A DNA stretch of 64,000 bases from a bacterium (GCA_963675295.2 CAXXKJ010000002.1:640001-704000); one strand, 5' to 3'. Shown: positions 8,150 through 31,023, counted from the stretch's first letter. The notes: generated by a model from the sequence alone, not told the origin. Made by a program: numbers and translations.

Positions 8150-8178
8150 AAAAAGGGGGCGACGATGATCGTCCCCTT
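8150..8178 (-). terminator. Intrinsic terminator of the DUF932 operon
   Basis: Hairpin AAGGGGGCGACGAT-G-ATCGTCCCCTT followed by a T-run on the minus strand, just after the stop of the 33-aa ORF. Confidence 0.65.
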
Positions 8179-8184
8179 GCTAGT

Positions 8185-12195: not shown

Positions 12196-12336
12196 ATGTG
12201 AATTGCGATTGTAGTGCTGTTGATGGCGTTACTACCAGCCATGGCGTTCAGCCAGGCTTGGATTGAACATACCGTAGATGGTGAGTTTGAGGGGGCACGT
12301 TGCGCGTATGTGGCGATTGTTACGTCGTGCCAGTGA
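12196..12336 (+). pseudogene. Truncated 5' remnant of an FG-GAP secreted-protein paralog
   Basis: ATG TGA ATT GCG ATT GTA GTG CTG TTG gives M*IAIVVLLMALLPAMAFSQAWIEHTVDGEFEGARC, matching the next gene's MRIASVVLLVGLLP...WNEHTVVGDFNGATC. Confidence 0.7.
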
Positions 12337-12406
12337 AGCGTCTCAAACGAGTGAAAGCGGAGATCTGGTTTTTGCTCTGTGCGAGGCAACCAAGGGGGGT
12401 AGAACG

Positions 12407-14221: not shown

Positions 14222-14257
14222 AACGGTCGAAAGGAGAGGGGATCAGTAACATTGACT

Positions 14258-14292
14258 ACGGCCGCGTCCATCTGTTTATAGATGCGGCCGTA
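14258..14292. terminator. Hairpin / probable terminator
   Basis: TACGGCCGCGTC...GATGCGGCCGTA inverted repeat after the stop codon. Confidence 0.5.
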
Positions 14293-14432
14293 ATGACTCC
14301 ATGACGACGGGCGAACCGGAGACGTCCCTGCTGGTTTTTCATCCAATCTGCGCCCGGGAGCTGCCCACCAGCATCTTTCTTCCCGTATACTTAGAGCAGG
14401 CCTCGTTCGCAGACCTCATTTGTGGAGACCCC

Positions 14433-17400
14433 ATGTTTCGTATGCGCGTTGCTGCATACGGTTTGATCGTGTTTGCCCTGCTCCAGACTGCCCAACTTCA
14501 CGCACAGATCACCGAAACCGGCTCGTTCCGGTCGTTCATCCTCGGCAACGAACCCGCCGCCGCGTACGACAACTGGATTTCGCACACGGTGGAAGGGCTG
14601 GCCGTGCCTGGCGGCTACAACCACCACATGCCGCCGCAATTTGACCGGCAGACGACCGGTTTCGGCAGTTTCGAGCTGATCAGCGACGACGACGCGCCCG
14701 CCGAAAGCCTGTTCTGGCGGCAGGTTTTCACCCACATGTGGAACGATGACCTTGCGGCCGCGCAGGCGTTGTTCAGTTCGCAGGGGCGTCCGTTCGATGC
14801 GGTTTATTTCAACGACACCGAGACTGGCCGTACGTTCCGCATGGTGCGTGAGCAGCTCAACGAAAGCTATGTCGATACCGGGTTTTTCGCCGGACCGGAC
14901 GATGACGTGATCGGCAGTTTCGACAAGGGCTGGGGGCTGTTTGTCTTCAATCCGGAAGCGGCGATTCCGTGGGCGCACGCGCAAGTGGTACACATCAACG
15001 ACGACTTCATCGCGCCGCCGTTAACTACAGATCTGTTCCTCGACGGCGACCTCGGGGTTTTATCGATGAACGGGACCGGTCGTGAAGTGCGTTGGGTGGA
15101 CGGCGAAGACTACAACAACTCGCGGTCGTTGTCGGATCCGTCCCGTAACGGACGCCTGCCGGTGCAGTGGTTCACGCAGTTTGTCATCGACACGTTGCGC
15201 GCCCAGGGGATGACCGACCTCACCATCCAGTTTCACAGCTACGACAGTGAATCGCACCTGACAGAACCGACGATCCAGATCAGCGGCGGCCCGTTGGACG
15301 CTTTCCCCAATCGTGGCGCGCGAGATATCTCCGGACAGGGGTATGACTGGGTGAATTTCGCTCCGACCGTCGTTGTTCCAGCGGATTATTCGATGCCGGG
15401 GCAGGCGGAAGTACTGGTGCAGAATTACTTCGCAGTCTGGCGCGGGTTTGGCTTGATGCACCTCGAGAGCGGGGTGGAGATCCCGCGGAACGTACAGCTG
15501 ACTGGGTACGGCGACAGCCCGCAGATGGCGTCAGCGTGGGAGGGGGTCAACCGCTACGAAACGTTTGACCGCTGGCTGCACGTCGAGTTCGACGAACTCC
15601 CAAACCCGATCGCGGCGGCGGAATACACCGAGCTGGATTTCTTCATGGGCACCGCACCGCCGACCGAGGAAAACTGGGACGCGTTGCTGCGGTACTATGA
15701 AGCGTCGAACGATGCTTTGGTCGCGTACCTGCATGACGTCGAGAACACGCAGGACACGACTCCGCCCTCGACGGCGGCCGGGTTGTCGGTGTACTACGTG
15801 GCGGACGATTTCGTTGAGCTGACTTGGTCGCAGGCGTCACTCGATCCGAATTTCGCGACGTACGAGATCTATTACGGCACCGCGGACGAGATCGACACGA
15901 CAAACACGTTGTGGAATTTCAGCAACGACCCGGATCTCGTCGGGCAGAACATTCGGTTCACCAGCGTCAACGGTCTGGATTTCAACCAGGACTATGGTTT
16001 CCGAGTTCGTGGGCTGGACCTGTTCGGGCTGGCAGGACCGTTGACGGAAACTGTCCGCGCGATCACCGTTGAGGGCGATCAGGCTCCATTGCCTTTCTCG
16101 CTGATCTCGCCGCTGGACGCCGACACCTGCTTCACGCTCGACACGACGCTGGTCTGGCAGTCGACCACTGATCCCGACCTGTACGACGTCCCGCATTACG
16201 ATGTTTGGATGGACACGTTGCCGGACCTTTCCACCGCGTGGCAACTCGAGGACGCCGACAGCCTAGCCGACACGACCTTCGCCGTCGAAGATCTGATGAA
16301 CCGGCGCACGCTGTTCTGGTCAGTGCGTGCCACGGACCGTAATACGGAGGGGACGTGGGCCAACGAAATCAACTCGCTGGTGACATGGATGCCGCTGCCG
16401 CCGGCTGATTTCACACTCAAGTATCCGCGTGATCGGGAAACGCTGTACGACGTTACTTCGACGCCAATCCGCTGGCGTTCGACGGTGAGCCAGAATGATC
16501 CGGACTGGGAGATCACCTACCGGCTGATATTCGGGCGTGATGCGGCCTTTGCGGACGCCGACACGTTCCAGACGCAGGACACGACGTGGACGGTGGACGA
16601 TCTGGAATTGAACCACACCTACTGGTACAATGTGTACGCCCACGATCAGATCGACACGGTGCGTTGCGAGTCGGTGTGGCGGTTTTACGTCTGGAGCCAT
16701 CCGATCCCGAACTTCAGCCTCGTGTTGCCGGAGCTTGGCGCACGTGTCGGCAGCGGCGAGGTGACGGTCACGTGGGAAGAACCGGCCCCGGCGCGGGTTG
16801 ACGCCACGCAAACCCATCATCGGCAGATGCAAACGGACTCCATCACTCCGGCGGTCGAAGGGCGAGTGACCCGTCTGTCGAAGCAACGCAAGCACAGCGG
16901 CAAGGGGATTCCGTTTGACGGCGGGCAGGGCTGGGCGTCTATTGATGCCCAGGGCGGACCGGACGATTTCGGCCACCTGTGGATCGACAACGGCGATTAC
17001 GGCGGCCCGCTGTTCGACTGGATAGAGATCAGTGAGACCGGCACCCTGTCGTCAGTGTCCGACACCGACGACGGCACCGAATCGGTCGAGTTGCCGTTCA
17101 CCTTCCCGTATTACGGCGGCGAGTACGACACGCTGGTGATCAGCAGCAACGGGAACGCACATTTCGGCACGCCGGACGATGGCTGGCAACATTACACCAT
17201 TCCGAGCGCGGATGGTCCGGCGGGCATCCTCGCGCCGTGGTGGATGGACCTGCGGCCGAATGTGCGCGGAACGATTTTCTATCAGGCGTTTGACGACTAT
17301 TTCGTCGTGCAGTGGGACAACTGCCAGGAGTACAGCCACCCGTTGTGGTCGTATACCTTCCAGCTGATACTCTACCCCAACGGCCGGATCAAATTCCAGT

Positions 17401-18923
17401 ACGAGCACATGTTCGGCGGGTTGGCAGATGCGACCATCGGCATCGAAAACCTCGCCGAGGATGACGGTCTGCTGGTCGCGTTTGACGCGCCGTACATCGA
17501 CAACCATTTCGCCATCCTGTTCACGTTCGAGGACTGGCTGTACGATGTTGAATGGGCAGCCGATCCAGCGTTCATGAACCCTCTGTCCACCTGGACCTTC
17601 GACACCGAATACACCATTGACGAAGTGATCCTGCTGCGCTTGTTCAACGCCGGCGAGCTGGATGAACTCCCGGACGATCTGACCGTGTTCTGGCGAGTCA
17701 ACACGATGAACTTGTACAGCCAGATGGCGTGGGCGGATCCGGGCGTGATGGGGCGCAGCTTCATGGTCTACATCCAGGAACCGCCGGACACGTTCGAGCT
17801 GATTCAACCGCCGGATGAGGCCGTGGTGGAACAGGATACGGTGACCGTCTGGTGGCATTCGACCACCGATCCAGACCCGTTGGACACACTAAGCTACGTT
17901 GTCGAATGGTCGGCTGTCGAGGACGAGTTCCTGCCGGAGAACAGCGCAGTTGTCAGCGACACGTTCTTCACCATTACCGAGCTGCAGCAGTTGGTTCAGA
18001 CGCCGCGTCACGGTGGGGCGGAGGCGAAGGTTCAGGCGGATGTGGTCGAGCTGCCGCGGGGTAAACGGGACAAGGTGCGGGGCAAGGCGGGTGCGTCCGT
18101 GGCGGCGGTGAATCCGTCGGAACAGAACGGTCTGCCGGTAGAACCAGGCGAGAACGAGATCGACGAACTCCCGGACGATTCGTATCTCTACTGGCGTGTG
18201 CGCGCGCGGGATCAGGCGGGGAACGAAACGTGGCCCGCGCATGGCGAGACGCCGTGGCGGTTCTACGTGCAGGTGCCGGAACCGCCGGACCCGTTCGTTT
18301 TGCTGGCGCCGGAAGACGGCGACACGCTGTCCGAGCTGGAGGTGAGCGCGTTGACGTTTTCGTGGGAGGAGTCGGTCGATCCCGACCCGGACGAGGAGGT
18401 GGTGTACGGTCTGCGGGTGCAGGTGCAGGTGGGAACGAGCATCGACACGACGCTGCTGTACACCGGCTTGACTGAACCGTCATATACGTTGAACCTCGCG
18501 GACACGCTGGGTATCGGCGAGTGGGAGGACTGGTGGACGGTCGGCTGGGTTGTTGGCGCGGTGTCGGCAGGGGATACGACGCTCTGCGATGATCCGTTCG
18601 GCTTCCTCGTCGCGCCGTACCTGTCGGTGTATGACAGCGAGTTTACTGGCATCCCGGACGAGTTCTCGATCGCGCGGATCTACCCGAACCCGTTCAACCC
18701 GGTGACCAATGTGGTGGTCGGTATTCCGCACGCCAGTGACGTCCGTGTCGCGGTGTACAACGTGCTCGGACGGCGGGTGCAGACGGTTCGGCTGGATCGT
18801 GCAACGCCCGGCTATCACACGATCTCGCTGGACGGCCACACGCTCGCAAGTGGCATCTACTTCGTGCAGGTGACCGTTCCCGGCCAACTCAACGAGGTGC
18901 GCAAGGTTGTGCTGGTGAGATAG
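14433..18923 (+). CDS. Large multidomain surface protein (uncharacterised N-domain, FN3/Ig repeats, NIDO-like domain, T9SS-type CTD)
   Basis: Signal peptide from ATG 14433; FN3 (DTTPP...LTW...YGFRVRGLD); repeated P.F.L..P...W..STDPD units; GGPDDFG..WID domain; YPNPFNP CTD. Confidence 0.85.
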   Translation: MFRMRVAAYGLIVFALLQTAQLHAQITETGSFRSFILGNEPAAAYDNWISHTVEGLAVPGGYNHHMPPQFDRQTTGFGSFELISDDDAPAESLFWRQVFTHMWNDDLAAAQALFSSQGRPFDAVYFNDTETGRTFRMVREQLNESYVDTGFFAGPDDDVIGSFDKGWGLFVFNPEAAIPWAHAQVVHINDDFIAPPLTTDLFLDGDLGVLSMNGTGREVRWVDGEDYNNSRSLSDPSRNGRLPVQWFTQFVIDTLRAQGMTDLTIQFHSYDSESHLTEPTIQISGGPLDAFPNRGARDISGQGYDWVNFAPTVVVPADYSMPGQAEVLVQNYFAVWRGFGLMHLESGVEIPRNVQLTGYGDSPQMASAWEGVNRYETFDRWLHVEFDELPNPIAAAEYTELDFFMGTAPPTEENWDALLRYYEASNDALVAYLHDVENTQDTTPPSTAAGLSVYYVADDFVELTWSQASLDPNFATYEIYYGTADEIDTTNTLWNFSNDPDLVGQNIRFTSVNGLDFNQDYGFRVRGLDLFGLAGPLTETVRAITVEGDQAPLPFSLISPLDADTCFTLDTTLVWQSTTDPDLYDVPHYDVWMDTLPDLSTAWQLEDADSLADTTFAVEDLMNRRTLFWSVRATDRNTEGTWANEINSLVTWMPLPPADFTLKYPRDRETLYDVTSTPIRWRSTVSQNDPDWEITYRLIFGRDAAFADADTFQTQDTTWTVDDLELNHTYWYNVYAHDQIDTVRCESVWRFYVWSHPIPNFSLVLPELGARVGSGEVTVTWEEPAPARVDATQTHHRQMQTDSITPAVEGRVTRLSKQRKHSGKGIPFDGGQGWASIDAQGGPDDFGHLWIDNGDYGGPLFDWIEISETGTLSSVSDTDDGTESVELPFTFPYYGGEYDTLVISSNGNAHFGTPDDGWQHYTIPSADGPAGILAPWWMDLRPNVRGTIFYQAFDDYFVVQWDNCQEYSHPLWSYTFQLILYPNGRIKFQYEHMFGGLADATIGIENLAEDDGLLVAFDAPYIDNHFAILFTFEDWLYDVEWAADPAFMNPLSTWTFDTEYTIDEVILLRLFNAGELDELPDDLTVFWRVNTMNLYSQMAWADPGVMGRSFMVYIQEPPDTFELIQPPDEAVVEQDTVTVWWHSTTDPDPLDTLSYVVEWSAVEDEFLPENSAVVSDTFFTITELQQLVQTPRHGGAEAKVQADVVELPRGKRDKVRGKAGASVAAVNPSEQNGLPVEPGENEIDELPDDSYLYWRVRARDQAGNETWPAHGETPWRFYVQVPEPPDPFVLLAPEDGDTLSELEVSALTFSWEESVDPDPDEEVVYGLRVQVQVGTSIDTTLLYTGLTEPSYTLNLADTLGIGEWEDWWTVGWVVGAVSAGDTTLCDDPFGFLVAPYLSVYDSEFTGIPDEFSIARIYPNPFNPVTNVVVGIPHASDVRVAVYNVLGRRVQTVRLDRATPGYHTISLDGHTLASGIYFVQVTVPGQLNEVRKVVLVR

Positions 18924-18979
18924 CTTCGAGTTCCATGGCTGGTGAGTTGTGGTTTCCAGCTGTGCAGACTGTGAAAGAC

Positions 18980-19011
18980 AACCCGCCGAGTTTCTAAGTT
19001 CGGCGGGTTTC
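18980..19011. terminator. Bidirectional terminator between convergent genes
   Basis: AACCCGCCGAG...TTCGGCGGGTTT hairpin. Confidence 0.6.
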
Positions 19012-19048
19012 CTCGCACAGAAACTTCCCGTGTACCCCACTGTCCGGG

Positions 19049-19669
19049 TTACAGCTGAGGCACAACCCCCTGTGCAAGCAGAAGTTGATAATGCCCGTTC
19101 GCTGGAAATTCTGGAAGTGCGAAATCCAAGAGCAAGGTGAAGGTATGGAATCCCGGAGAAAAGTTAACGGAAAGTTGGCCATCCAAGTCAGGAAGTAACG
19201 GTTGAAATGCTTCTCCATCAATGCTGATGTGCCACATAATTGAATAATCGATATTCACATAGGTGTTGTTGTACACATCACTCACGTAATGAAGTGTTGG
19301 TGCGCCTTCGGCACCTGCAAACCCCTCGCAAAGTTTCCATATCATGGATTCTGATCCTTCAATCGTGCCGCAAAACTCAACGGAAAGAGGTTCTGTCATT
19401 TGACTTAGATGGACATTTGCGGCGGTCCAGTCCAATGTGAGTCGCATGGAGATTTCTGTTGTGTCTTCATCCGTAATGGAACGCGCGCCAAATTTCCGTC
19501 GATCCGCTGCCTTGCCAATGGAGATATAATGCGGTTTTCCATAGGGTTGAATTGAACGTGGTGGGTTCTTTGTTTCTGGTGTCCGCGGGGGTGGAGGTGT
19601 AGCTGCCAGCGATGATGCCGCAAGCAGCAATAACAAACTAAAAACGAGGTATACGTATATGACACGCAT
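19049..19669 (-). CDS. Secreted pilin-like protein (minor subunit candidate)
   Basis: Sec signal, Pro-rich N-extension, beta-rich body, C-terminus ANGHYQLLLAQGVVPQL paralogous to 21448-22149. Confidence 0.6.
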   Translation of the reverse strand: MRVIYVYLVFSLLLLLAASSLAATPPPPRTPETKNPPRSIQPYGKPHYISIGKAADRRKFGARSITDEDTTEISMRLTLDWTAANVHLSQMTEPLSVEFCGTIEGSESMIWKLCEGFAGAEGAPTLHYVSDVYNNTYVNIDYSIMWHISIDGEAFQPLLPDLDGQLSVNFSPGFHTFTLLLDFALPEFPANGHYQLLLAQGVVPQL

Positions 19670-19699
19670 GGTCTTGCCACGGTTAATGGCTTCAAAAAA

Positions 19700-21355
19700 C
19701 TAAATCACAAAAACTCTTGTCTTACGATACAACGATCCTTCATCAGAATCATACGTTATATAAAAAGTAGCTCTATATTTGCCATCTTTCAGCTCAGGAA
19801 TATTTAATGAGTAATTACGACGGCCATTCGGAAGTATGATTTGATCGCGTCCACCAAATTCAACACGGTCTGATATTATATCATAAGCTCCTGGATTGTT
19901 CTCTCGTTCGAGTGCAAAGATACCGGAAACAAAGCAGTATTTCGTTCCGTTATTTTCGACACTAAGGTCAAAGATGCATTTTTGGGTGTCTGGATCTTTG
20001 TGGACATAGATTGTGTCGATTGAAACCTCGGATTCTCCTGTTTCCGGTCCGGTCAGGATGATTAATTGCGTGCGTGCGCCACGAAACTCTTCCGCCAACG
20101 CAGGTTCCAGGCCCTTAGGTATCAGACTCAGCGCGGCATAATACTCGCCGTCCAACGTTTCAGGTGCCTCTACGCGTAGCTTTACCGTTGTGGAATGACG
20201 GGGAGGAAGCACGATCTCGTCGTCGACCTGTTCCAGCCAGGAAAGCGCAGACCGGCCGTGGTCAACGCCCGCCGGGCTGAAATAGGAGTTTCCCCGTGGA
20301 TCGATTGACCAGTCAATAGTTTCCGGTTGCAGCCAGATTGTGTCCAGGGCGATGCTTTGCAGGTTGGCAACGATGTAGGTTGATCCACCGGGAGTTACGG
20401 TTTTCCGCAACACGGGATCCCGGAACCGGAAGGCGGGCCGGGCTGCCCACCGAACCTGGGCCGTTTCATCCACCAGCACGTTCGGGATGGTTTGGCCGTC
20501 ACGGATTTCAAACGGGAATTCTTCCGAGATATTCCGGCCCTCGCGAGTCTGCAACGCGATACTCAGCAGGTAGTACCCGTCAACCAGCGCACCGACTCCC
20601 GTCGCTTTGAAATCCCGGGCACGGTTGGGAATGATATAGCCTTTTCCGGCGGTCAGCGGCAGGGTTTCCAGCCGCATGCCCGAGCCGCTCCACAGGCCCA
20701 CCGATCCCCGGACCATGGTGTGCGTATTCCCCGAATTTCGGATCGGAATCTTTAATTCCCAGCCCTTGCTTTGTTCAGAACGAGCGAGCAGGGATTGATT
20801 TTCGAGCTCTGCCTTTTCACCGTTCGGATAGACGATAATCGTGTCAGGATAGAGAACCGCTGCATTCCGCCTTGATTCGACGGTGAACATGAGCAGCACG
20901 GCGACCTGCAATTTCATTTCGAGGCCGGTTTCACCCTGATCCGTACTGATGTCAATCGGCATATCCTTGCTGCCGGCGGTGACTTTCAGCATGGCATAGT
21001 AGCCACCTTCGGCGTCGCGGGGAACGGTCACGGTTCCACTGAGCACCATTCCTTGAACCGGTCCGATATGTGCTGATTCCTGTTCAAGCGTAATCCAGTT
21101 CGCCGCACCGCGTGCGTAGGTCGAATCGTTGGCAACAAAGGGCTTGCCGGTTTCATCGATATCCATGTCATGGACGGAAAAAACAGCCAGCACCTCTTCA
21201 TCGCCATCGTTGTACACATTGAACTCGAAGGTGGTCGATCGTCCGCGTTTGACATCCAGTTCCTGGATCGGAGGGCTCAGCTGCAGCGCTGCTACTCCGA
21301 GCGATGGAAGCAGAATGGACAGGCAGATCGCGATGAGGCATGCTTTGGTGTTCAT
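19700..21355 (-). CDS. Periplasmic tandem PapD/WxLIP(DUF916)-like chaperone
   Basis: Signal peptide then LQLSPPIQELDV...FNVYNDG, VTVP...GGYYA, IRNSGNTH, IIPN..R, DGYY; the whole unit repeats in the C-terminal half. Confidence 0.7.
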   Translation of the reverse strand: MNTKACLIAICLSILLPSLGVAALQLSPPIQELDVKRGRSTTFEFNVYNDGDEEVLAVFSVHDMDIDETGKPFVANDSTYARGAANWITLEQESAHIGPVQGMVLSGTVTVPRDAEGGYYAMLKVTAGSKDMPIDISTDQGETGLEMKLQVAVLLMFTVESRRNAAVLYPDTIIVYPNGEKAELENQSLLARSEQSKGWELKIPIRNSGNTHTMVRGSVGLWSGSGMRLETLPLTAGKGYIIPNRARDFKATGVGALVDGYYLLSIALQTREGRNISEEFPFEIRDGQTIPNVLVDETAQVRWAARPAFRFRDPVLRKTVTPGGSTYIVANLQSIALDTIWLQPETIDWSIDPRGNSYFSPAGVDHGRSALSWLEQVDDEIVLPPRHSTTVKLRVEAPETLDGEYYAALSLIPKGLEPALAEEFRGARTQLIILTGPETGESEVSIDTIYVHKDPDTQKCIFDLSVENNGTKYCFVSGIFALERENNPGAYDIISDRVEFGGRDQIILPNGRRNYSLNIPELKDGKYRATFYITYDSDEGSLYRKTRVFVI

Positions 21356-21400
21356 AACCTACTCCACGGAAATCGGGCGAAACCGCACAGATCAAAAGCA

Positions 21401-21435
21401 ATGCGCCCGGCCGGCCGGGCTCCGGCCGGACGCAT
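21401..21435 (-). terminator. Intergenic hairpin after the putative major pilin gene
   Basis: ATGCG-C-CCGGCCGG...CCGGCCGG-A-CGCAT followed by TGCTTTT on the minus strand. Confidence 0.6.
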
Positions 21436-21447
21436 CTGCATGTTGGA

Positions 21448-22149
21448 TCAGGTTGTCGGAACCGGGCACCCAGCGATAACCAGCTGGTAGTGACCATCCG
21501 CCTGGTGTTCGATCAACAGGAAGGAACCCCACCACTGGAACCAGTGGTTACATGGCGCAACATTCCAGTTCAGCACCAGGTCGCCGTTGCCGTTCGGGGT
21601 ACAAGTCGCCCAGTCGTGGGTCACGTTCGACCCGATCGACAGGCCATTGCCCATGCGGCACTGCCATGCGATCGGAATGTCGCCGGCGGATCCGAACGGA
21701 GCTTCGATGAAGTGAAGCTTGTCGAGGTCCTGAGACAACTTGTCAAGGCTGACCCGGAGCGTTTCGTTCGAACGCACGGTTCCGCTGATGTAGAAGTTGA
21801 TCGTTTCGGCGCCTGTGAGCGCGTTGACACGATGCCAGTCGTAATCGGTGTACTGGTAGGTGCAAACCATGCTCAGTTCAATCCACAGATCGAGGGTGAT
21901 CGGATCATACTGAATGATCTGGCTCTCCCACTGATCCCCAACCAGATAGAACTGATGGAAGTTTCCACCGGCGTACAGGCACAGGCCACTGTCGTAGCTG
22001 CCGGTAGCGGTTTCCCAGTTGATCGGGCAGTTGCCCCACCCCTCAGCGAACGTCTGGCCGGTGAGCTGGTTCGTGTACTCCGGCGGACCTGAAGCGATCG
22101 CCGCTCCCGCGATCAAGCTCAGGACAATGATGAACGTTAACGGTTTCAT
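21448..22149 (-). CDS. Secreted pilin-like protein (major subunit candidate)
   Basis: Sec signal, strong SD GGAGGAG, several Cys, beta-rich, C-terminus ADGHYQLVIAGCPVPTT. Confidence 0.62.
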   Translation of the reverse strand: MKPLTFIIVLSLIAGAAIASGPPEYTNQLTGQTFAEGWGNCPINWETATGSYDSGLCLYAGGNFHQFYLVGDQWESQIIQYDPITLDLWIELSMVCTYQYTDYDWHRVNALTGAETINFYISGTVRSNETLRVSLDKLSQDLDKLHFIEAPFGSAGDIPIAWQCRMGNGLSIGSNVTHDWATCTPNGNGDLVLNWNVAPCNHWFQWWGSFLLIEHQADGHYQLVIAGCPVPTT

Positions 22150-22421
22150 GATACATCTCCTCCGCTTTGCACCTTATATTGGTGCAGTTAAGCCGTTCCG
22201 TGAGAAATCACGGATTTCGGCTTCGCGCGGCCGTCCGGAAGCTTCCCCAAGCGTTTGACCGGACGGCCATTTTTTACTGCCTACCTGGATTACTGCGTTT
22301 ATGCCCGAGTGGGCTGTTATGGGATGGAGGTGTGACCAATCGCCCGGTTAGGTGGCACACTCTCCTTTTCCCGAGACTGACTGACGAATCCGCGGTGCTG
22401 TTTCCCCGTCGTTTGTGTTGA

Positions 22422-24029
22422 CTATCCCTCAAGCACGTGAGGGGTTACAAAGATCACAATCTCCGAGTCGCGTGTGTTATCCTGCGTATAGCGAAAGAAG
22501 TAGCCGAGAAACGGTATACTTCCCAGGAGAGGGATCTTTCGTTGCTGTTTGTCTTCCACTTCCAGGCTCAATCCACCGATGGTGAAGGTGTCGCCATCGT
22601 TGATGCGAACCGTCGTTTCGGCTGCACGTGTGTTGATCTGCGGAAGACCTTCACTGTCCTCACCGATCACATCCCCAACTTGTGGCCTGAGATAGAGCGT
22701 AATCTCCTTTGTATCGGAGACAAGCGGGGTTATTTCTAGAATAATGCCAGATGTAATCGATTGTAAGGTATTTTGCGCATAATATTGATTTTGACTTGTC
22801 TGAATAATAAAATATTCGTCTCGTATCAATCGTATGCTTGCAGTCCTGCCATTCATGGTTGTGATCCGTGGATTCGCACGGATGCGAGCGTCCCCGGACG
22901 CCAGCAAGGCATTCAGCGAAACGCTTACATCCACCAATTCACCTCCAACCGACCCGCCAAGTTCAACAATTTCGAGAGTCGAGGATGGGGTGTCGATCTG
23001 GGGAGAACTGGTTGAGAACAATCGCGCATGGTTCGGATCCCGATTGCTCGCGGACCAGTCCACTCCCAGCTGCAATTGGCCGGTGTGCGTAATCTCGGCG
23101 ACAATGACTTCGATGGACACCTGAACCGGTGGTTCATCCATGGCGAGAATGTCTGCTTTGATTCGCTTGACAAGCGATTCGGGAGCGGTAATGAACACCT
23201 TGTTGCCAGTGTCTGAAGCCTTTACATAGTCTGAATAAATGTCTGGCAATGTATTTACCGCCGCACTCGCCTTGATATTTGTCAACTGAACAACATCCGT
23301 AATTGATATCAGCGTAAACGACGGATCCGTAGGATCAAGGCTGCCAATGATATATTTGTCATCCGTAAATACATAAGCATACCCCAGTGGCAATAAGATT
23401 GAATTCAGCAATTTGTCAATCGGCTGATCATTGGCTTCATAGGTGACCAGACCCTCTACCATCGGGCTCCAGAAGATGGGAATGCCTGTTTCGATGGAAA
23501 GGTCACTGAGAATCATGCCCAGATCAGTCTCATAGTAGGTGTTTGTAATTCTGAGATCCTGATGCGGGGAGGGATCGGCTGCCTCGTGGTTGAGTGTGTC
23601 TGAACGTGTATCGCTTGCTCGTGGTGTGTCACGGTACGATTGCTGGTTTATGACCATCGCGGAGTGACGCAATTTGCCGATCCGAGTGCTGTCTCGTTCG
23701 GAATCAGCCCACCGGTAGGCATCGTTGATCGTATTCAAGGCAGCTGCAGCGTCTTCGACTTCGAGTTGTGTTTCGGTCAGGAGCAGCAGGAAGGGAAGAC
23801 GGTCAGAAGAAAGGGGCAGGAATTGGAGTTTGTTCGTGAGGTAAACCTCAGCTTCCTGGTAGCGGTGTTCGTGGACCAGTTGCCTGGCAAACTCGTAGGC
23901 TTGAGCTGCGCCGTAGTCTGCAGGTCGTTCGGCTTTCGCGGCATTTGCCAGCAGGGACACAATCAGGAAGATCCATAGATACTTCAACCGACTTCGCCCC
24001 GGAAAATCTGAAGCCGTGATAAGACTCAT
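22422..24029 (-). CDS. Secretin (GspD/PilQ superfamily) with N-terminal TPR-like region
   Basis: N0 and N3 domains, QVSIEVIVAEI, ANPRITTMNG, GIILEITP, GDTFTIGGL, KIPLLGSIPFLGYFFR, IVIFVTP; ends without an S-domain. Confidence 0.93.
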   Translation of the reverse strand: MSLITASDFPGRSRLKYLWIFLIVSLLANAAKAERPADYGAAQAYEFARQLVHEHRYQEAEVYLTNKLQFLPLSSDRLPFLLLLTETQLEVEDAAAALNTINDAYRWADSERDSTRIGKLRHSAMVINQQSYRDTPRASDTRSDTLNHEAADPSPHQDLRITNTYYETDLGMILSDLSIETGIPIFWSPMVEGLVTYEANDQPIDKLLNSILLPLGYAYVFTDDKYIIGSLDPTDPSFTLISITDVVQLTNIKASAAVNTLPDIYSDYVKASDTGNKVFITAPESLVKRIKADILAMDEPPVQVSIEVIVAEITHTGQLQLGVDWSASNRDPNHARLFSTSSPQIDTPSSTLEIVELGGSVGGELVDVSVSLNALLASGDARIRANPRITTMNGRTASIRLIRDEYFIIQTSQNQYYAQNTLQSITSGIILEITPLVSDTKEITLYLRPQVGDVIGEDSEGLPQINTRAAETTVRINDGDTFTIGGLSLEVEDKQQRKIPLLGSIPFLGYFFRYTQDNTRDSEIVIFVTPHVLEG

Positions 24030-24749
24030 TTACCCCTCATAAACAAGTCACTATGTCAATGAAATAGCTGCGCCGAAGCACGTAGAATCATAGTACTCGG
24101 CTGCATGCCATCAAGCAATCGAGATCAAATAACGTATACAAACAAGCTTATTAACACTAAATGAAGTCGATAATCATTTACATATAACAGGACAATCGGA
24201 CAGCTGTGACAAAATCCTTGTCCGAGCAAACATCTTCTATTACTGGAGAAAGCTGACCCCCCCTGGGATGGTACCAGTATACTAACACAATTTTGGAATT
24301 GCGAGCTTGTGCGCAATTTTCTTATTTGGATATTGCTCCGAGAGACTATAAGATAATTATATATCAGGATCAATAATAAAAAGAAATAGTGCTAGATAAA
24401 GTCCTGATAAATTTAAAACTCCGCAGAAATGATTTATAATAATTAAGAAGATGATTTGAAAAAATTCCTTGCTGGCGAGCTATTTTTTGTCTCACGATAC
24501 AAGGAAATCACTCAGTCTCGTCCTTAGGTAACAACAGGGTAGGCATTAACACTCCCGAGTTATCATTGATATGTTTGGCACGCATAACAAAGGCTTAAAC
24601 TGGAACAAGAACAAAACATTATATTTAATAATGTTATAAAAGAGGATAGGGGCCTTCTTCGTGGGTACACGAGTCGGAAAGGGAGGATATCACCATTCTT
24701 CTATCTTAACAGAAACCAGGATGATAACATCGATATCAATGGTACTTGT

Positions 24750-25928
24750 TTAAAAATAGACATTTAATCGCGCAAATCCGGACAGCAGGCCGCTTGGAAA
24801 CGCTCCATCTTCTTCACCCAGCGTATAGCCCGCGAAGAGGGTCGCGTCGGCGTTCTGCGCGATGGAAATGGTCAGTCTCGGGTTGATCATGTAGGTTTCG
24901 TCGGGCGAAACGAACGCATACAGCGAGGCGGTTGTCAGCATGGTGATGTCGTAGCGTGTGCCGAGCATCAGCCACCCTGGCCCGACCGGTTCGCCGTACA
25001 GCAGGTTGGCCAGCCAGTCGCTGATCGGGTAGGGGGTTTCTTCTTCCGCGCGACCGTTGTAGAACCCTTCCGCCATGACATACAGCCCATTCTCGAAAGT
25101 GTAGTCGAAGCCACCAACGACACGGGCGAAATCGTCCTCGGATTCCATCCAGTTGTAGTTGCCTTCCATCCAGATACCGAGTCCGAGCAGCGAGCCGGTA
25201 AACTCGAGGCCGAGCGCTTCCCGTCGTTGCGTGCGCGGCATCAGGAATGTTGGATCGAGCGAGGTCGAGTCGGTGACCGAGTGCGCGGTGACGGCGACAT
25301 CGTAGCCGATCGCGGAGAGGTAGGTCGCAAGGCGCAGGGCGTAGCCGGACTGGTCGAAGTTCGGCCCAGGGGCCATGATCGCGGCGATCTGTCCGCCGAT
25401 ACCCCAGCGGTAGTCGAGCCGGATCGCGCCGACGCCTTCCTTTTCGTAGGTCGGGTCGATCAGCGATTTCTTGTGGAACAGGTCGGTGGGGTTGATGCTG
25501 TAGCCGGGTCCCCAGGACAGTTGCTGCTTCCCGGCGCGCAGGGTGAAGCCGTGCGTGTTCCAGGTGAGGAACGCGTTATCGAGATAGATCCGGCTGCGAT
25601 CGAGGTTGACCACCGGCTGCTGGCCGAACTGGCGCATCACACGCACGATATCCGGCGGCAGGTACGGTTCAGCATTGATCGCGAGATCGCTGTGGTAATA
25701 GAGGAAGTTGACATTGCCCCGAAAACCCAGCTCGCCGTCCTCACCGCCGGATTGCACGTCAAGCCGCACTTTTGACGCGCTGACCAGGGTTTCGTCGCCC
25801 TTTTCCGGCTGATCAATCTGGGTCGTATTTTCGTAGTAGCCGGAGAAGTCCGGTTGCGCGTGGCTGATGCCCGTAAGAAAGACCAGTGCCGCCACAGCCA
25901 GTATCCAGCGAAGTTGTTGTGCATTCAT
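24750..25928 (-). CDS. Outer-membrane beta-barrel (porin-like) of the MMPL operon
   Basis: Signal peptide from ATG 25928, LRAGKQQLSWG..NPTD, terminal YF. Confidence 0.8.
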   Translation of the reverse strand: MNAQQLRWILAVAALVFLTGISHAQPDFSGYYENTTQIDQPEKGDETLVSASKVRLDVQSGGEDGELGFRGNVNFLYYHSDLAINAEPYLPPDIVRVMRQFGQQPVVNLDRSRIYLDNAFLTWNTHGFTLRAGKQQLSWGPGYSINPTDLFHKKSLIDPTYEKEGVGAIRLDYRWGIGGQIAAIMAPGPNFDQSGYALRLATYLSAIGYDVAVTAHSVTDSTSLDPTFLMPRTQRREALGLEFTGSLLGLGIWMEGNYNWMESEDDFARVVGGFDYTFENGLYVMAEGFYNGRAEEETPYPISDWLANLLYGEPVGPGWLMLGTRYDITMLTTASLYAFVSPDETYMINPRLTISIAQNADATLFAGYTLGEEDGAFPSGLLSGFARLNVYF

Positions 25929-26141
25929 CGTATCGATTTCCTCATGCCCCAGACAGTCATCTCCGGGATGATCAACCGTTTCCCACGGGTCCCTGCTTTC
26001 AAGGTGCCTTCTACATCCAGGTGCCCCTGATGGCTCCGCCAACAGGGATCATCAGCCGTCTCCGGGTCCGCGTCCGCATTTTCTGCGTCACGAGTACTTC
26101 ACCACCTCATCACTCGATTACTTCACCACTCCACAGTGCTA

Positions 26142-26173
26142 TTCTTACCACGGACTTAAGTCCGTGGTAAGAA
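26142..26173. repeat. Perfect 32-bp REP-like palindrome
   Basis: TTCTTACCACGGACTTAAGTCCGTGGTAAGAA inside the operon's intergenic region. Confidence 0.75.
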
Positions 26174-26205
26174 GAATGGTACGCAGACACGGGCTAAGGC
26201 CGAAA

Positions 26206-26964
26206 TCATTCAATCGGCTCGCTCAGTGCGCCCTTGGTGAACAGGCGCGCGTCCGGTTCTTCGTTGTAGTGGATCTCGATGGTGTTCATCACCGTGTGCG
26301 AATTCCGCCGGTGGTTGTCCATCCGCATCGAGAACGCGGTCTTGCGGCCGTCCACGGTGCGAAAGTCGGACAGGACCAGGGTCTTCTCCAACCCTTCCTC
26401 GTCATAGTACTCGATCTTTCGCGAGAGGTGGTCGTTGGTTGAGGCCCAGATGATGAGGTGGTCGTAGGACGGTCCGTCCGGAGTCGGTGTCGCCTTCAGT
26501 TTGATCACCGGTTCGCCCTCGAGGGTTTCCTCGCCGAGGACTTCCGCCGTGTAATCTTCCCGCATGTCGCCGGTGGACAGGTCTTCGTAAGAGAAATCGC
26601 TGCCCATCGCGGACTGTTTCAGCGTGTGCCCGGCGTAATGGCGGGTCACATCCCGGCGTTTCATGTAGTACCACACCTGGTCGCCGCCGTCCAGCAGCAG
26701 GATTTTGTCGCCGGCGACGCGGGACGGGTCGGTGTACGCCATCAGCGACACATCTCCGCTGTCCGCGCTGAACGATTCGAAGGTGAAGGTGCGTTCGTCG
26801 CCGGAGGTGGTGGTGATGGTCTGCGTCATCGTGCCAATGGACCACGGTACCGACTCGGCGTCGTCAATCTTGCTCAGCCACCGCTGCCCGGCTTCGTCGG
26901 CGAAGGCGCAGCAAGTGATCAGTAGTATGGCAAATACTGTATGGAAGAAGACTCGTAGCTTCAT
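26206..26964 (-). CDS. LolA-like outer-membrane lipoprotein-sorting family protein
   Basis: Signal peptide; MGSDFSYEDL, KIEYYD, FT...L motifs. Confidence 0.85.
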   Translation of the reverse strand: MKLRVFFHTVFAILLITCCAFADEAGQRWLSKIDDAESVPWSIGTMTQTITTTSGDERTFTFESFSADSGDVSLMAYTDPSRVAGDKILLLDGGDQVWYYMKRRDVTRHYAGHTLKQSAMGSDFSYEDLSTGDMREDYTAEVLGEETLEGEPVIKLKATPTPDGPSYDHLIIWASTNDHLSRKIEYYDEEGLEKTLVLSDFRTVDGRKTAFSMRMDNHRRNSHTVMNTIEIHYNEEPDARLFTKGALSEPIE

Positions 26965-26995
26965 GGTTCTATCCTCAATCTGGTCGTGAACTCTA

Positions 26996-29686
26996 TCAGT
27001 TATTGTCCCGCACAAACACCCGCACCACGGCCGGCAGCACGAACACGGTCGAGAGGAAGCAGAAGCCGACGCCGAGAAACAGCACCATCCCGAAGCTGGC
27101 CATGCCGCGCATGGTGTAAAACGCGATCGAACCGAAGCCGATCATGGTGGTGACGCTGGTCAGCAGGATAGCGCGTCCGACGCGGCTGAACGCGGTTCGG
27201 ATACGGTCCAGAGCGCTGCCGCTCAGTTCACGGAAGCGGTGCAAGGCGTGGACGCCATCATCGATTCCAATTCCGAGAATCACCGGCACTGCGATCAGGT
27301 TGATGTAATTGTATTTCATCCCGGTGACGTACATCAGGCCGAGCATCAGCAGCGCGCCACTCAGAAGCGGAATGACCGCCATCAGGCCGAAGGTGCCACG
27401 GAAGTGGAATAGTAGCAGGATGAAGATAACGCCCAGCGCGAGCAGCGATCCGGTACGTCCGTCACGAAGTGTTTCGACCGTCATCACGATGAACAGTTCC
27501 GCCGTGCTCAGGTGATTCCCGGCGACATCTTCCACCTGCTGGTCGAATCGGTCGAGCTTGTCCTTTTCCCAGATGCTTTCACGTGGCGAAACACGCAGCA
27601 GGTATTCGGCCGAGCCATCCATCGGCAGCAGCGACTTGCGAACCGTTTCGGGCAAATTGTCGAGGGTGCCCGGGGTCGAGTTGGCCATCTGCGGCATGCG
27701 TTCGGCGAGGGACGCATTCCACGCCGCCGCGACTGCCTGCACCCGTGCCCGGCCGGCGTCATCCTCAAACAGTGCCTGCAGCGAGGGAAATACGGCGGTG
27801 GTGTCGGTTTCGTTGGTCTCGGTATCGTACCCGGTGAGGATATCGATAACCGGCCACACCCGGTCGACACCAGCCATGTACGCCTGGTTGCTCATGGTGT
27901 CGAGGTTGTCCCACAGGCGGCTGATCTGTTCGTACAGCTCATCAGTATCGGTGCTCGGATCGGAGTTGGACGCGATCCGTTCGCGCAAGGTCGCGAGTTG
28001 CGGGGCGTACTCGTCAACCCACGCCGGTTTGGTAACATAGTCGCTGACCGAGCTGACCGAACCGACTGCGGGCTTATCATCAAGGGTGTCCTTGAGGACA
28101 CGTGCGCGCTCGATGTCGGTGACGGTGATCCAGCCTGATTGATCGGACATCCCGAACCGATCCGGGATTCCCTGCTGCATCTCGACCGAGGTTAGTCCTT
28201 CAGGCTCGAGATTGAGGAAATTGTATTCAAACGGGATGTCGGTCCAGGCGACGTAGAAACACGCCCCGCCGAGCAGCACCATCACGATCAGCACCAACGC
28301 GGGCCGTTTGAACGACCAAACCGCGATGCTGCCGAGCAACGGCCAGCCTTCCTCAGCATCCGGTGGCAACGGTGCGACGCGTCCCTTGCGGGTGTACCGC
28401 TTCTCCCGCAGCACGAGCAGCGGCGGCAGGGTGAGGAATACCGCGACCAGAGTCAGCAATACGCCCGCACCAGCGGAGAAGCCGAATTCGAACACGCCGC
28501 GCGTGTCGGCGATCATCAGTGCGAAGAACGCCGCCGCGGTGGTCAGTCCGCCGGTGAGCACGCCCCGTCCCGTGCCGCCGATGGTGATCGCGAGCGCATC
28601 CTCGAGGCTGTGACCGGTGCCGCGTTCCTCGCAGAAACGGGTGACGAGGTGCAGCGTGAAGTCGATCCCAAGTCCGATCAATACCAGGCCGAGCATCACG
28701 GTCATGATGTTGATCGAGCCGAACACGACCGCCATCAGGCCCAGCGCCCAGATGATTCCCACCGCCAGCGGCAACATCGCCAGCCACGGCAATCCCCAAC
28801 TGCGGAAATTGCGCACCAGCAGCAAGTAAACGAGAATCCACGCCGCCAGCGTCAACAGCTGGGTGTAGGTGCCGACGCTGTTCATTTCGTCGACGCCGAT
28901 CGGTCCCATGCCGGTGAAGCTGACCTTGACTTCGGGATGTTCCGCGGCAAGCTCACTGACGTACTCTTCCACCTGAGTCGTTAATTCCAGCGCGGCCTCG
29001 GATGCCGACCACATCGGTTCCTTCGGTGTGATCGCGACCAGCAGCATCTTGCGGTCGAGACTCAGCATCCACGGTTCCCCGGCGAGCAAGGCGCGTACGC
29101 CTTCGTCCGCGTTGGCCTCATCGCCGGACAAGCCCTGTTCGAGACGATCGAGGGCGAGACCCATGCCGAGCAGGCCGCGCGCGACCATCAGTTCGTCGTC
29201 GCGCAAGTTGTCGTCGTTGTCCGTGTACTCGCGTTCGAAGTCGTCGTTGATACCGCGCAATACACCGGTCAGACTGGGGTCGTCGTACATCCGCAGCCAG
29301 CGGTCGAAATCTTTCGGTTTCTGCAGCATGAAGCCGTGGTCGAGGAAATACTCCTGCGGCTGCGCACCTTCGACGTGGTAAACACCGTCCATCTCGCGCA
29401 GGGTGGGCACGATTTCTTCCGCGAACGCGACCATGTCGTCACGTTCGCCCTCGATGGCGATGATGATCGACTGTTCGCCGTACTCGTCCACGATCTGCTT
29501 GTAGCCGACGGCGTCCGGATGGTGTTCCGGCAGCAGGTCGATGAAGTTCATCCGGAGTTGCAGTGTTCCCGCCTGCCAGAATGCGGCAAATGTCACAAGC
29601 AGCAGCGCGATCAACATCAGCACCGGACGGTTGACACTGAGCCGCGCAAGACCGCGCGCCCAGCCGGGGATGGTTTCCCGTTTCAT
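26996..29686 (-). CDS. MMPL/RND family transporter (HpnN-like)
   Basis: Two repeats of TM1 + periplasmic domain + 5 TM; GLGIDF and GIGIDDGVH motifs. Confidence 0.92.
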   Translation of the reverse strand: MKRETIPGWARGLARLSVNRPVLMLIALLLVTFAAFWQAGTLQLRMNFIDLLPEHHPDAVGYKQIVDEYGEQSIIIAIEGERDDMVAFAEEIVPTLREMDGVYHVEGAQPQEYFLDHGFMLQKPKDFDRWLRMYDDPSLTGVLRGINDDFEREYTDNDDNLRDDELMVARGLLGMGLALDRLEQGLSGDEANADEGVRALLAGEPWMLSLDRKMLLVAITPKEPMWSASEAALELTTQVEEYVSELAAEHPEVKVSFTGMGPIGVDEMNSVGTYTQLLTLAAWILVYLLLVRNFRSWGLPWLAMLPLAVGIIWALGLMAVVFGSINIMTVMLGLVLIGLGIDFTLHLVTRFCEERGTGHSLEDALAITIGGTGRGVLTGGLTTAAAFFALMIADTRGVFEFGFSAGAGVLLTLVAVFLTLPPLLVLREKRYTRKGRVAPLPPDAEEGWPLLGSIAVWSFKRPALVLIVMVLLGGACFYVAWTDIPFEYNFLNLEPEGLTSVEMQQGIPDRFGMSDQSGWITVTDIERARVLKDTLDDKPAVGSVSSVSDYVTKPAWVDEYAPQLATLRERIASNSDPSTDTDELYEQISRLWDNLDTMSNQAYMAGVDRVWPVIDILTGYDTETNETDTTAVFPSLQALFEDDAGRARVQAVAAAWNASLAERMPQMANSTPGTLDNLPETVRKSLLPMDGSAEYLLRVSPRESIWEKDKLDRFDQQVEDVAGNHLSTAELFIVMTVETLRDGRTGSLLALGVIFILLLFHFRGTFGLMAVIPLLSGALLMLGLMYVTGMKYNYINLIAVPVILGIGIDDGVHALHRFRELSGSALDRIRTAFSRVGRAILLTSVTTMIGFGSIAFYTMRGMASFGMVLFLGVGFCFLSTVFVLPAVVRVFVRDNN

Positions 29687-30348
29687 GCGTTCATTCCCCT
29701 ATATGATTCGTTCGGATGCGGTAGCAAACCGTGGACGATGAACTCGGTGGTTTCGTGGACCAGCGATTCGACATCCATCTGAATGGCAACCGCGTCCGGG
29801 TTCATCAGGAAAATGTGTACGGTGTCGAGCAAGGTCTGAATGATCCAGGTAGCCATTTCCGGATCGAGTTTGCGGAATTCACCGCTTTCGACGCCTTCCC
29901 GCAGAAAGCTCGACAACAGGTTGATCACCGAATACAATTCGGTGTTGGTGGGGGCGATGTGGGTCATGGTGCGCATCAACTCGGCGTCCTCCAGCAACAC
30001 CTGAAACAACGGATGCTCCTGCACCACGGCGAAGTAGGTGGTGAGGTAATGCCGCACCTTGCCGGTCGCCGAAGCACCTTCGGGCAGGGTGGCCATCACC
30101 TGGTCGGTCAGGTCCTGCGCCAGCGCGCTGTGCATCTGCACCAGCAGGTCGAGCTTGTCATTGAATAGTTCGTAGAAGGTGCGTTTCGACATCTTCGCCG
30201 CCTTGCACACCTCCTCGATGGTGGTTTTCTTGAAGCCGAAGCGAACGAACAGCGGCTCGGCCGCGGTGAAAAGCTGCCGGCGTTTCGCGCGTTCCGGATC
30301 GCTGGTGGTGCGATTATCGGTTTCGTTTTGTGGTGGTTGCATTGTCAT
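29683..30348 (-). CDS. TetR/AcrR family regulator
   Basis: FVRFGFKKTTIEEVCKAAKMSKRTFYELF HTH. Confidence 0.93.
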   Translation of the reverse strand: MTMQPPQNETDNRTTSDPERAKRRQLFTAAEPLFVRFGFKKTTIEEVCKAAKMSKRTFYELFNDKLDLLVQMHSALAQDLTDQVMATLPEGASATGKVRHYLTTYFAVVQEHPLFQVLLEDAELMRTMTHIAPTNTELYSVINLLSSFLREGVESGEFRKLDPEMATWIIQTLLDTVHIFLMNPDAVAIQMDVESLVHETTEFIVHGLLPHPNESYRGMNA

Positions 30349-30476: not shown

Positions 30477-31023
30477 GGGGGAATGGAGAGACCTCCCTCT
30501 CCCTGCAGTTTTCGAGCAATTTTCGAGGATTGGCGTAGGGTTCCGGGTATGGGGTTTTGTATGTTACAGCAATGAGAAACGGGGCGTCGGCAGGAGACAT
30601 GGTCTCGGTTGGGTAGGCTAAATCAGCGATTGGAGTGATGATTTGGGGCAATTTAAGAAGCCAACCTGTTGATACAACGGTAGTTCTGTTCAAGTCCAGG
30701 GAGAGGCAGGACAGTGCGGGAGTCGGGTGCGAGCCTGTGACAGCCGTCATCGGGGGAGGCCTGTGCGGCGGTTAGATTAGGTGCGCCAAACTATTGCTGC
30801 TTGGTTGAGATACGTTGGACAAAACTTGGTGTTTTCGAAGATTGGAGGATACTTATCCGATTCTTCGTACAATTGTTGAATGTTTGCCGGTACGTTTCGC
30901 GTGGGCATGCGGAACGTGGGCTTGGTACGATACAGTGAGAATCAAGCGAATTGGTGAGTGGGAGAGTTCGCCAAAAATTCGCTCAGGGCACGAGCCACGA
31001 TGGAGAATGCAGGAGTGACCCAC

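Follow-up and report, generated by a model that had tools for sequence, protein, structure and literature searches.

A conserved four-gene cassette joining a secretin with a predicted WxLIP-like tandem protein and two beta-sandwich paralogues, a candidate chaperone-assisted export route

A stretch of 64,000 nucleotides from a bacterial genome of 4.5 Mb (GCA_963675295.2, CAXXKJ010000002.1:640001-704000; hereafter the window) was analyzed around four co-oriented genes on the minus strand of positions 19049-24029. In the direction of reading, they encode a secretin, a small beta-sandwich protein (protein A), a chaperone-like protein of 551 residues (C551) and a second beta-sandwich protein (protein B). 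Eleven related loci of other phyla were collected. The initial annotation of this DNA had delimited the same four genes, which was confirmed, and knew of no characterized system with this composition; the composition of the cassette matched no described system. We consider it plausible, though falling a little short of probable, that the cassette produces a surface structure with the help of a chaperone and exports it by way of a secretin of its own. Most likely, it is a self-contained, horizontally mobile envelope module of diderm candidate phyla related to the Fibrobacterota-Chlorobiota-Bacteroidota (FCB) group, which assembles and exports a surface fiber or adhesin.

Results

Conservation of the cassette as a unit

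A scan of the species genomes of GTDB yielded 11 related loci (L001 to L011), whose bins were labeled Zixiibacteriota, Zhuqueibacterota, Ignavibacteria, KSB1, UBA2214, 'Cytophagia' and 'Alphaproteobacteria' or were unclassified. An A-like gene stood directly upstream of the C551 homologue in 11/11 loci; nine of these genes were detected by tblastn, and the 228-amino acid (aa) open reading frames (ORFs) of L009 and L010 were assigned by alignment and tree. The secretin was present in eight of the 11 loci, the other three (L002, L008 and L010) being cut by contig ends, and the B gene was detected by tblastn in six. The co-occurrence of chaperone-like, subunit and secretin genes, which the initial annotation had made one test of its proposal, was indeed found.

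The order secretin-A-C551-B was retained in L003, L004, L005 and L007, and L006 carried secretin-A-C551 with a contig end just past C551. The order was rearranged to A-C551-B-secretin in L001, and L002, which begins within an A gene, read A-A-C551-B. The remaining loci, L008-L011, formed a distant clade (24-28% identity) with a half-size C551 paralogue, the A-like gene and C551; in L009 and L011, C551 was followed by a protein with a sorting tail of the type IX secretion system (T9SS) and then by the secretin. The gene order differs in L001, L009 and L011, but the genes remain grouped. Because the arrangement recurs in 11 loci of other phyla, it lies far beyond chance.

The four genes were intact ORFs across phyla at 22-48% identity, and the flanking genes were unrelated from locus to locus and differed in every one. 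The pairwise identities of the secretins and of the C551 homologues were correlated (r 0.65, Mantel p 0.005, nine taxa). The GC content at third codon positions (GC3) of the cassette in the window was 0.44-0.58 (A, 0.76) compared with 0.74-0.80 in the flanks. In L004 (7366-12342), the corresponding values were 0.33-0.34 for the cassette and 0.62 for the flanks, and the cassette GC3 was mildly lower in L003 and L011. The low GC3 therefore pointed to transfer as a unit, and the base composition suggests that the cassette is foreign and was horizontally transferred whole. An expression-type codon bias of A in all loci was also considered and was rejected, since it holds in the window only.

Additional genes were observed in several loci. 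L002 (1-1081; 3811-4939) has two tandem A genes, and genes for an extracytoplasmic function sigma factor and a zf-HC2 anti-sigma factor follow right after B, a combination that hints at envelope-stress-type regulation of this locus. The distant version of the cassette includes a protein of ~425 aa without a Pfam match, a single-module C551 paralogue of ~265 aa and a protein with a lamin-tail domain. In L011, the last of these is encoded between C551 and the secretin and carries a sorting tail of the T9SS; in L010, it comes after C551. A T9SS-tail-like stretch was detected by tblastn between C551 and the secretin of L009.

C551, a duplicated protein with a predicted WxLIP-like fold

C551 is composed of a signal peptide and two tandem modules of ~265 aa, each with two Ig-like domains. 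The tandem nature that had been proposed for the chaperone-like protein was verified by BLASTP of the two halves against each other (E 4e-5) and by hhalign comparison of the family profiles of the halves (probability 98.2, E 5e-14, 212 columns). Sixteen homologues at 34-40% identity were retrieved from a word-indexed protein collection, two of them named (Zixibacteria and Zhuqueibacterota). No half-length relative was found in this collection at E <= 1e-3; the half-size paralogues of L008-L011 were found by tblastn.

The AlphaFold2 (AF2) model of C551, built from 17 sequences, was all-beta, with a predicted local distance difference test (pLDDT) score of 78.6 and a predicted TM-score (pTM) of 0.58, and contained a long hairpin (strands 117-133 and 144-159) with a disordered tip. 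When the model was compared with the PDB by Foldseek, the top 22 ranks were occupied by very long generic multi-Ig chains with a TM-score normalized to the target (TMt) <= 0.29. The only whole-target matches (TMt > 0.3) among the 41 matches listed were two WxLIP chains aligned over 260-268 columns, namely 9i1y_A (E 3.4e-10, TMt 0.57), entitled 'WxLIP from Enterococcus faecium', and 9i25_C (E 6e-10, TMt 0.61), a WxLIP 'bound to long WxL'. These 41 matches included no classical chaperone of the chaperone-usher type. With WxLIP as the best whole-target structural match of this model, a WxLIP-like fold is predicted for C551.

WxLIP_PGBD (PF06030) matched C551 of the window below threshold (E 0.046, 14.2 bits compared with a cut-off of 27.3); sub-threshold matches to it were found in 7 of the 17 family members (best E 6.3e-4) and in two of three half-size paralogues, and WxLIP_HBD (PF11797) was absent from the matches listed for all 17 members. 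Other weak Pfam matches in the family were NPCBM_assoc, Big_14, fn3_5 and CARDB. The ASH-type Ig families OCRL-like_ASH (5/17) and HYDIN_VesB_CFA65-like_Ig (2/17) were weakly matched as well, as was Cep192_D3 (7/17); we take these three families to be related to the PapD-like fold. PapD_N and PapD_C (PF00345 and PF02753) gave no match at E <= 1 in C551 and its 16 homologues. The initial annotation had likened this protein to PapD; no such match was found by sequence, and the best whole-target fold match was a WxLIP of Gram-positive bacteria. A hydrophobic C-terminal stretch that could serve as a membrane helix was found in none of the 17 family members. The C551 profile had no match at E <= 10 among PDB sequences. 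The clusters matched in the Atlas search were for the most part unnamed; one was auto-named as a PapD chaperone (0.94), and some had small WxLIP shares. They were taken as leads only.

Proteins A and B

Protein A consists of a Sec-type signal peptide followed by a beta-sandwich, and protein B of a signal peptide, a proline-rich N-terminal stretch and a beta-sandwich core as in A. Neither had a Pfam or NCBIfam match at E <= 1, the WxL family of Pfam (PF13731) included. BLASTP aligned A with B across the C-terminal 47 residues (E 1e-6), and the two have a common C-terminal core in which T101, H106, G123, L145, H202, G219, Y221 and P231 (A numbering) are invariant. A quick maximum-likelihood tree with 92 rows separated three clades, one of A type (34 rows, SH-aLRT 97), one of B type (23 rows, 99) and one of distant A-like proteins (17 rows, 99). 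A and B fell into one HMM family. The paralogy of A and B claimed by the initial annotation was thereby corroborated, and on these alignments the two are old paralogues. A Cys pair (PxCDH and CPxP motifs) was noticed in A-type proteins and not in B-type proteins. The invariant H106 and H202, or the A-type Cys pair, could form a metal or ligand site, or a disulfide.

In an exhaustive profile search, 229 representative clusters were matched by the A/B profile at E <= 1e-3, 169 of them at E <= 1e-10; a word-indexed search with A found two relatives only. The family matches listed were almost all single-domain proteins of ~200-250 aa or shorter fragments, and most stopped at the end of the profile. 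Most full-length members finished at a conserved strand, ...DGYYxL....P.L. The A/B profile gave no match at E <= 10 among PDB sequences, and the Atlas search with A gave no usable match.

The AF2 model of protein A (77 sequences) was a confident beta-sandwich with a pLDDT of 93.0 and a pTM of 0.78. Among the 38 Foldseek matches listed for it in the PDB, 22 were entries of chaperone-usher pili (PapE, CsuE, CsuA/B, CfaB, FimA/F/G and CS20), and the remainder were mostly MSCRAMM adhesins and lectins. The subunits had been described as pilin-like; the likeness of A to pilins is suggested rather than established, because every PDB match had a weak score (TM-score <= 0.44).

The secretin

The Pfam Secretin family (PF00263) matched residues 375-533 of the first protein with E 6.7e-41 and 140.1 bits compared with a cut-off of 27.5, and the gathering score was also exceeded by all eight secretins of the related loci. 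Judged by these profile scores, membership of the secretin family is solid, in line with the first reading of the gene. Secretin_N (E 9.3e-4) and STN (E 0.015) were matched below the Pfam threshold. None of the NCBIfam equivalog cut-offs was reached, with 149 bits of 351 for GspD, 141.6 of 250 for MshL, 131.9 of 284 for PilQ and 120.8 of 238 for SctC, and the sequence matches in the PDB (GspD, RcpA, PilQ and pIV) spanned the C-terminal half only.

The protein begins with a signal peptide and a helical-looking N-terminal region of ~90 aa. A low-complexity linker connects this region to an N0/STN-like domain, which is followed by one Secretin_N-like domain and then by the secretin domain. According to an alignment of nine secretins, the conserved helical-looking region is restricted to the near clade and is absent from the distant-clade secretins. 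The TPR region that the initial annotation had assumed in this secretin is putative, no TPR family of Pfam being matched at E <= 1.

Local absence of assembly machinery

An usher (PF00577), a PapD-type chaperone, an ATPase of the type II secretion system (T2SS) or type IV pilus (T4P), a platform protein and a prepilin peptidase were sought with Pfam. None was present in the window (0/38 ORFs scanned) or within ~10 kb in the 11 loci (0/130 ORFs). The locus ORFs were called by a greedy method, which gave 141 of at least 90 aa, and 130 were scanned, the omitted ones being ten C551 homologues and one spurious antisense ORF. A regular expression for the consensus of the class III prepilin leader had no match in the window or the loci. 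The absences that had been noted at the outset were confirmed by these scans, and the homologous loci likewise lacked an usher or a T2SS/T4P core within ~10 kb, as the initial proposal required.

Hairpins inside the cassette

A terminator-like site directly 3' of the A stop codon was identified by terminator scan, with a 15-bp stem, 11 G-C pairs and the tail GCTTTTGATC. A hairpin was kept in 12/12 A-to-C551 spacers, with z from -1.7 to -5.1, and 0-10 of 200 shuffles folded equally well. Eight near-clade sequences had the motif CAGCCGG-AGCCCGG-CCGGCTG in common, with a 7-nt loop in which CCC was invariant. When seven of the near-clade sequences were aligned, a 9-bp stem was paired in 93.7% of cells and five of its nine pairs were changed on both sides; the covariation score was reached by 1/500 shuffles, and slid controls were much lower. 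A different hairpin was found at the same position after A in the distant clade. The conserved loop may be bound by some factor. A stem-loop after major pilin genes such as papA sets subunit excess, and the hairpin after A recalls that arrangement.

Upstream of A, an A-run followed by a hairpin was seen at a similar place in the window, L001, L003, L004 and L007 (folds judged by eye), and the corresponding hairpin of L005 follows TTTGAAT. L001 has the element although A is the first cassette gene there. The opposite strand reads as an intrinsic terminator. The element is possibly a 5' element of the A transcript. No overall conservation was found when the secretin-to-A spacers were aligned.

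Layout and boundaries of the cassette

The coordinates of the cassette and related features are listed in Table 1. A hydrophobic, signal-peptide-like N-terminus was found on all four proteins, and neither a lipobox (0/4) nor an LPxTG motif (0/4) was detected on them. The AT-rich upstream region described by the initial annotation was clearly visible, with a GC content of 0.366 at 24000-24499 compared with ~0.6 in the flanks. It contains two sigma-70-like sites on the minus strand (24373-24345 and 24114-24087), which are consensus matches only. An 82-aa ORF at 24125-24373 had no Pfam match and no relative in the 11 loci, and no conserved small ORF was found in the intergenic regions of the cassette. 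At the other end, the hairpin after B has a 10-bp stem inside a 91-nt fold (-35.6 kcal/mol, z -2.73). A terminator had been placed here; the GC-rich hairpin is present, but its T-run is poor and the site was not called by the terminator scan. An Rfam search of 18000-25000 gave no match at E <= 1.

Table 1. Features of the cassette in the window and of its relatives in the loci L001 to L011 (positions without a locus name are those of the window)
Feature	Position	Strand	Description
Secretin gene	22422-24029	minus	ORF, 535 aa
Gene A	21448-22149	minus	ORF, 233 aa; proposed major subunit
C551 gene	19700-21355	minus	ORF, 551 aa; proposed periplasmic WxLIP-like chaperone
Gene B	19049-19669	minus	ORF, 206 aa; proposed minor subunit
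AT-rich non-coding region, 720 bp	24030-24749	minus	presumed promoter region, upstream of secretin gene
A-run and 10-bp GC-rich hairpin	22229-22276	minus	~100-120 nt upstream of A start
GC-rich hairpin directly 3' of A stop	21400-21436	minus	proposed intra-operon attenuator or 3' stabilizer
GC-rich hairpin after B	18980-19009	minus	~40 nt past B stop; presumed transcription-unit end
Near-clade copies of the hairpin after A	L001:3595-3640, L002:1082-1135, L003:9878-9930, L004:9894-9945, L005:9849-9900, L006:9905-9973, L007:9839-9895		
Distant cassette version	L009:6686-14315, L010:327-6397, L011:6735-14117, L008:44-3449		extra genes
T9SS-tail proteins	12278-18923, 30958-32583, 37072-38811, 55602-58518, 61672-62595		

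Surrounding genes

Directly upstream of the cassette, positions 24750-30348 (minus strand) hold an apparent operon, which encodes a TetR regulator, a transporter of MMPL/RND-like type, a LolA-like protein and, with 430 aa, a weakly Wzi-like protein. These genes were considered as parts of the cassette and were rejected, as they are not conserved beside it. A T9SS C-terminal sorting domain was found in seven window proteins, five of them above the gathering score and several with FG-GAP repeats. Given these seven proteins, the organism probably has a T9SS. The T9SS-tail proteins were also rejected as cassette parts, since they are not conserved in the adjacent position, except for the T9SS-tail gene inside the distant-clade version. 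At the start of the window, positions 1-9643 (minus strand) encode a type I restriction-modification system, with HsdR at 1765-5013, HsdS at 5010-6284 and HsdM at 6268-7950, beside an AAA/SMC-like ATPase with an open end (1-1758) and a PD-(D/E)XK nuclease (9032-9643). By its gene content, this region looks like a defence island.

Discussion

The cassette was compared with several known surface assembly systems. One of these is the WxL pilus system of Bacillota, elrABCDE in Enterococcus faecalis, for which a preprint is dated 17 October 2026. According to that preprint, the DUF916/DUF3324 protein ElrE, a WxLIP, is a membrane-anchored donor-strand chaperone of a pilus, 96.7% of the chaperones of WxL systems have a membrane helix at their C-terminus, and the system is confined to Bacillota according to Pfam gathering thresholds and one RefSeq proteome per genus (bioRxiv 10.64898/2026.10.17.759780). 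A term search found neither 'secretin' nor 'diderm' in the preprint text (bioRxiv 10.64898/2026.10.17.759780). The cassette resembles the WxL pilus in the best whole-target fold of C551, which is that of WxLIP and includes the WxL-bound entry, and in a two-Ig-domain module that adjoins genes for small exported beta-sandwich proteins; neither has an usher or an ATPase. Differently, C551 is a tandem of two modules without a C-terminal membrane helix, A and B have no WxL Pfam match or LPxTG anchor, and the host of the cassette is diderm, with a secretin included. In addition, the C551 family lies below the Pfam gathering thresholds by which the confinement to Bacillota was defined.

The chaperone-usher pili (Pap, Fim, Csu and CFA/I) also place the gene of a periplasmic Ig-fold protein beside genes of small exported beta-sandwich subunits. 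They account for the 22 weak PDB matches of A, work without an ATPase and have a stem-loop after the gene of the major subunit, for example after papA, as seen here after the putative one. Unlike them, the cassette has no usher in its neighborhood and uses a secretin as the outer-membrane component, and C551 showed neither a PapD_N/PapD_C match nor a classical chaperone among its listed fold matches. With the secretin machines (GspD of T2SS, PilQ/MshL of T4P, RcpA of Tad, SctC of the type III secretion system and pIV of filamentous phages), the cassette has in common a true secretin domain, accompanied by an N0/STN-like and an N1-like domain. The cassette secretin differs from them in staying under every equivalog cut-off, in its single N1-type domain and, in the near clade, in its extra helical N-terminal region. 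Genes for an ATPase, a platform protein, a prepilin peptidase and a class III pilin were not found near the cassette in the window and the 11 loci. The type V pili of Bacteroidota (FimA/Mfa), from the same superphylum, are strand-exchange fibers formed without usher or ATPase, and their pilins are lipoprotein precursors matured by proteolysis. In contrast, A and B have no lipobox, and we know of no type V locus with a secretin or a WxLIP-like gene. In literature searches covering titles and the openings of abstracts, no paper describing a secretin with such partners was found.

The family assignments, the duplication in C551, the paralogy of A and B, the synteny, the lack of other machinery nearby, the WxLIP fold match of C551, its missing anchor and the conserved hairpin are observations; binding, polymerization, passage through the secretin and independence from an ATPase are inferences in the mechanism proposed here. 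All four proteins carry signal peptides and would be exported by Sec; none has a lipobox. The secretin, as a member of its family, would form the outer-membrane channel. C551, with a WxLIP-like fold and no anchor, would be soluble in the periplasm and would serve as a twofold chaperone, with A and B held by its two modules. Strand complementation would then link the subunits, which would exit by way of the secretin; we infer that folding and polymerization provide the driving force and that no dedicated ATPase takes part. A would be the major subunit, its output raised over that of the downstream genes by the conserved 3' hairpin, and B would be a minor subunit that perhaps initiates, terminates or anchors the structure. 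The hybrid export route envisaged by the initial annotation was hence supported in part, by the synteny and the missing core genes, with pilin likeness as the part that is suggested.

Several observations weigh against this mechanism. Neither the WxLIP nor the PapD family threshold was reached by C551, and its model was of moderate confidence. The fold matches of A were all weak (E 1.3e-3 to 3e-2, none <= 1e-3; TM-score normalized to the query <= 0.34, TMt <= 0.44), no WxL chain was among the 38 listed, and the WxL Pfam match was missing. The monomer model of A was confident throughout, residues 20-56 included, and looks complete as it stands. The conserved mature N-terminus of A (PPxxG..GWG..P.NW) is Gly/Pro-rich and is not of the alternating hydrophobic donor-strand type. 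Moreover, the correlation of secretin and C551 identities was not significant within the near clade (r 0.36, p 0.15), and the high GC3 of A was seen in the window and not in the other loci. To our knowledge, all secretins characterized so far depend on a machine in the inner membrane and on an ATPase. The view taken here covers ~10 kb per side of each locus and 64 kb of the 4.5-Mb genome, and a T2SS/T4P core at a distance is possible.

The dependence of characterized secretins on such machines and the local view speak for a different explanation, in which the secretin is the outer-membrane part of a T2SS, T4P or Tad machine encoded elsewhere and A, B and C551 are its cargo or accessory proteins. 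The similar scores of the secretin domain against the GspD, MshL and PilQ models, and its matches to PDB chains of GspD, RcpA and PilQ, also favor a secretin of this kind, but no equivalog cut-off was reached, and neither a core gene (130 ORFs of the loci, 64-kb window) nor a prepilin motif was found. The cassette moreover moves between phyla as a unit, with a foreign composition in several genomes, which is easier if only general host machinery is needed. A machine encoded elsewhere is on balance rather unlikely. An origin of the cassette from a filamentous phage or another mobile element, of which it would be a remnant with a pIV-like secretin and no cellular assembly function, is very improbable. 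A remnant would fit the cassette GC3, which is lower than in the flanking genes of the window and L004, as well as a weak match by sequence to 7ofh, a phage virion export protein (E 5.4e-11), and a transposase fragment ~700 nt upstream of the secretin in L007. Against it, the GspD matches of the secretin beat the pIV match, no Zot-like ATPase, coat or replication protein was found in the window or the loci, and the four genes are intact across phyla at identities of 22-48%. Comparison of A with viral structures gave nothing usable (TM-score <= 0.41), and a phage origin was rejected because A has no meaningful viral fold match.

Alternatively, C551 may not be a chaperone and may have a structural role as an Ig-repeat protein, as a scaffold that spans the periplasm and is attached to the secretin or as an exported adhesin, with A and B as soluble cargo or accessory proteins and no fiber formed. 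The generic multi-Ig chains in its top 22 fold ranks agree with a structural role, as do the weak Pfam matches to NPCBM_assoc, Big_14, fn3_5 and CARDB and the mostly unnamed Atlas neighbors of such kind, and the invariant H106 and H202 of A and B could mean binding of a ligand or metal. In the paper that defined it, WxLIP itself was first proposed as a surface-binding protein (PMC10599100). On the other side, the only whole-target fold matches among those listed were WxLIP chains, and the duplicated module suits the presence of two small paralogous partners, each near-clade locus having one A and one B. Most full-length A/B members end at the conserved C-terminal strand, as would be expected of a terminus recognized by a partner; the C-terminal strand is so recognized in chaperone-usher pilins. 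We judge such a role of C551 to be quite unlikely, and favor the chaperone-assisted export of a surface structure by the cassette.

In a more far-reaching form of this proposal, the cassette would be the third donor-strand pathway guided by a chaperone and, among secretin systems, the first without an inner-membrane ATPase. In it, a soluble, duplicated WxLIP-type chaperone would feed two paralogous beta-sandwich pilins into a dedicated secretin, with folding and polymerization as the only source of energy. This stronger claim is possible but doubtful. If it holds, WxLIP-type chaperones would not be confined to Bacillota, and secretins could be opened by a fiber growing in the periplasm. The proposed function, if true, would add a new route to the short list of outer-membrane assembly pathways and would mean that secretins are able to work in the absence of an ATPase machine of the piston-like kind. 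The Gram-positive WxL pili, described in late 2026, would gain a diderm counterpart, which bears on the origins of donor-strand chaperones. The cassette is small, with four genes in ~5 kb, and appears to need general host machinery only. It also provides the first functional lead for two protein families without a Pfam model, the A/B family with its 229 representative clusters and the C551 family.

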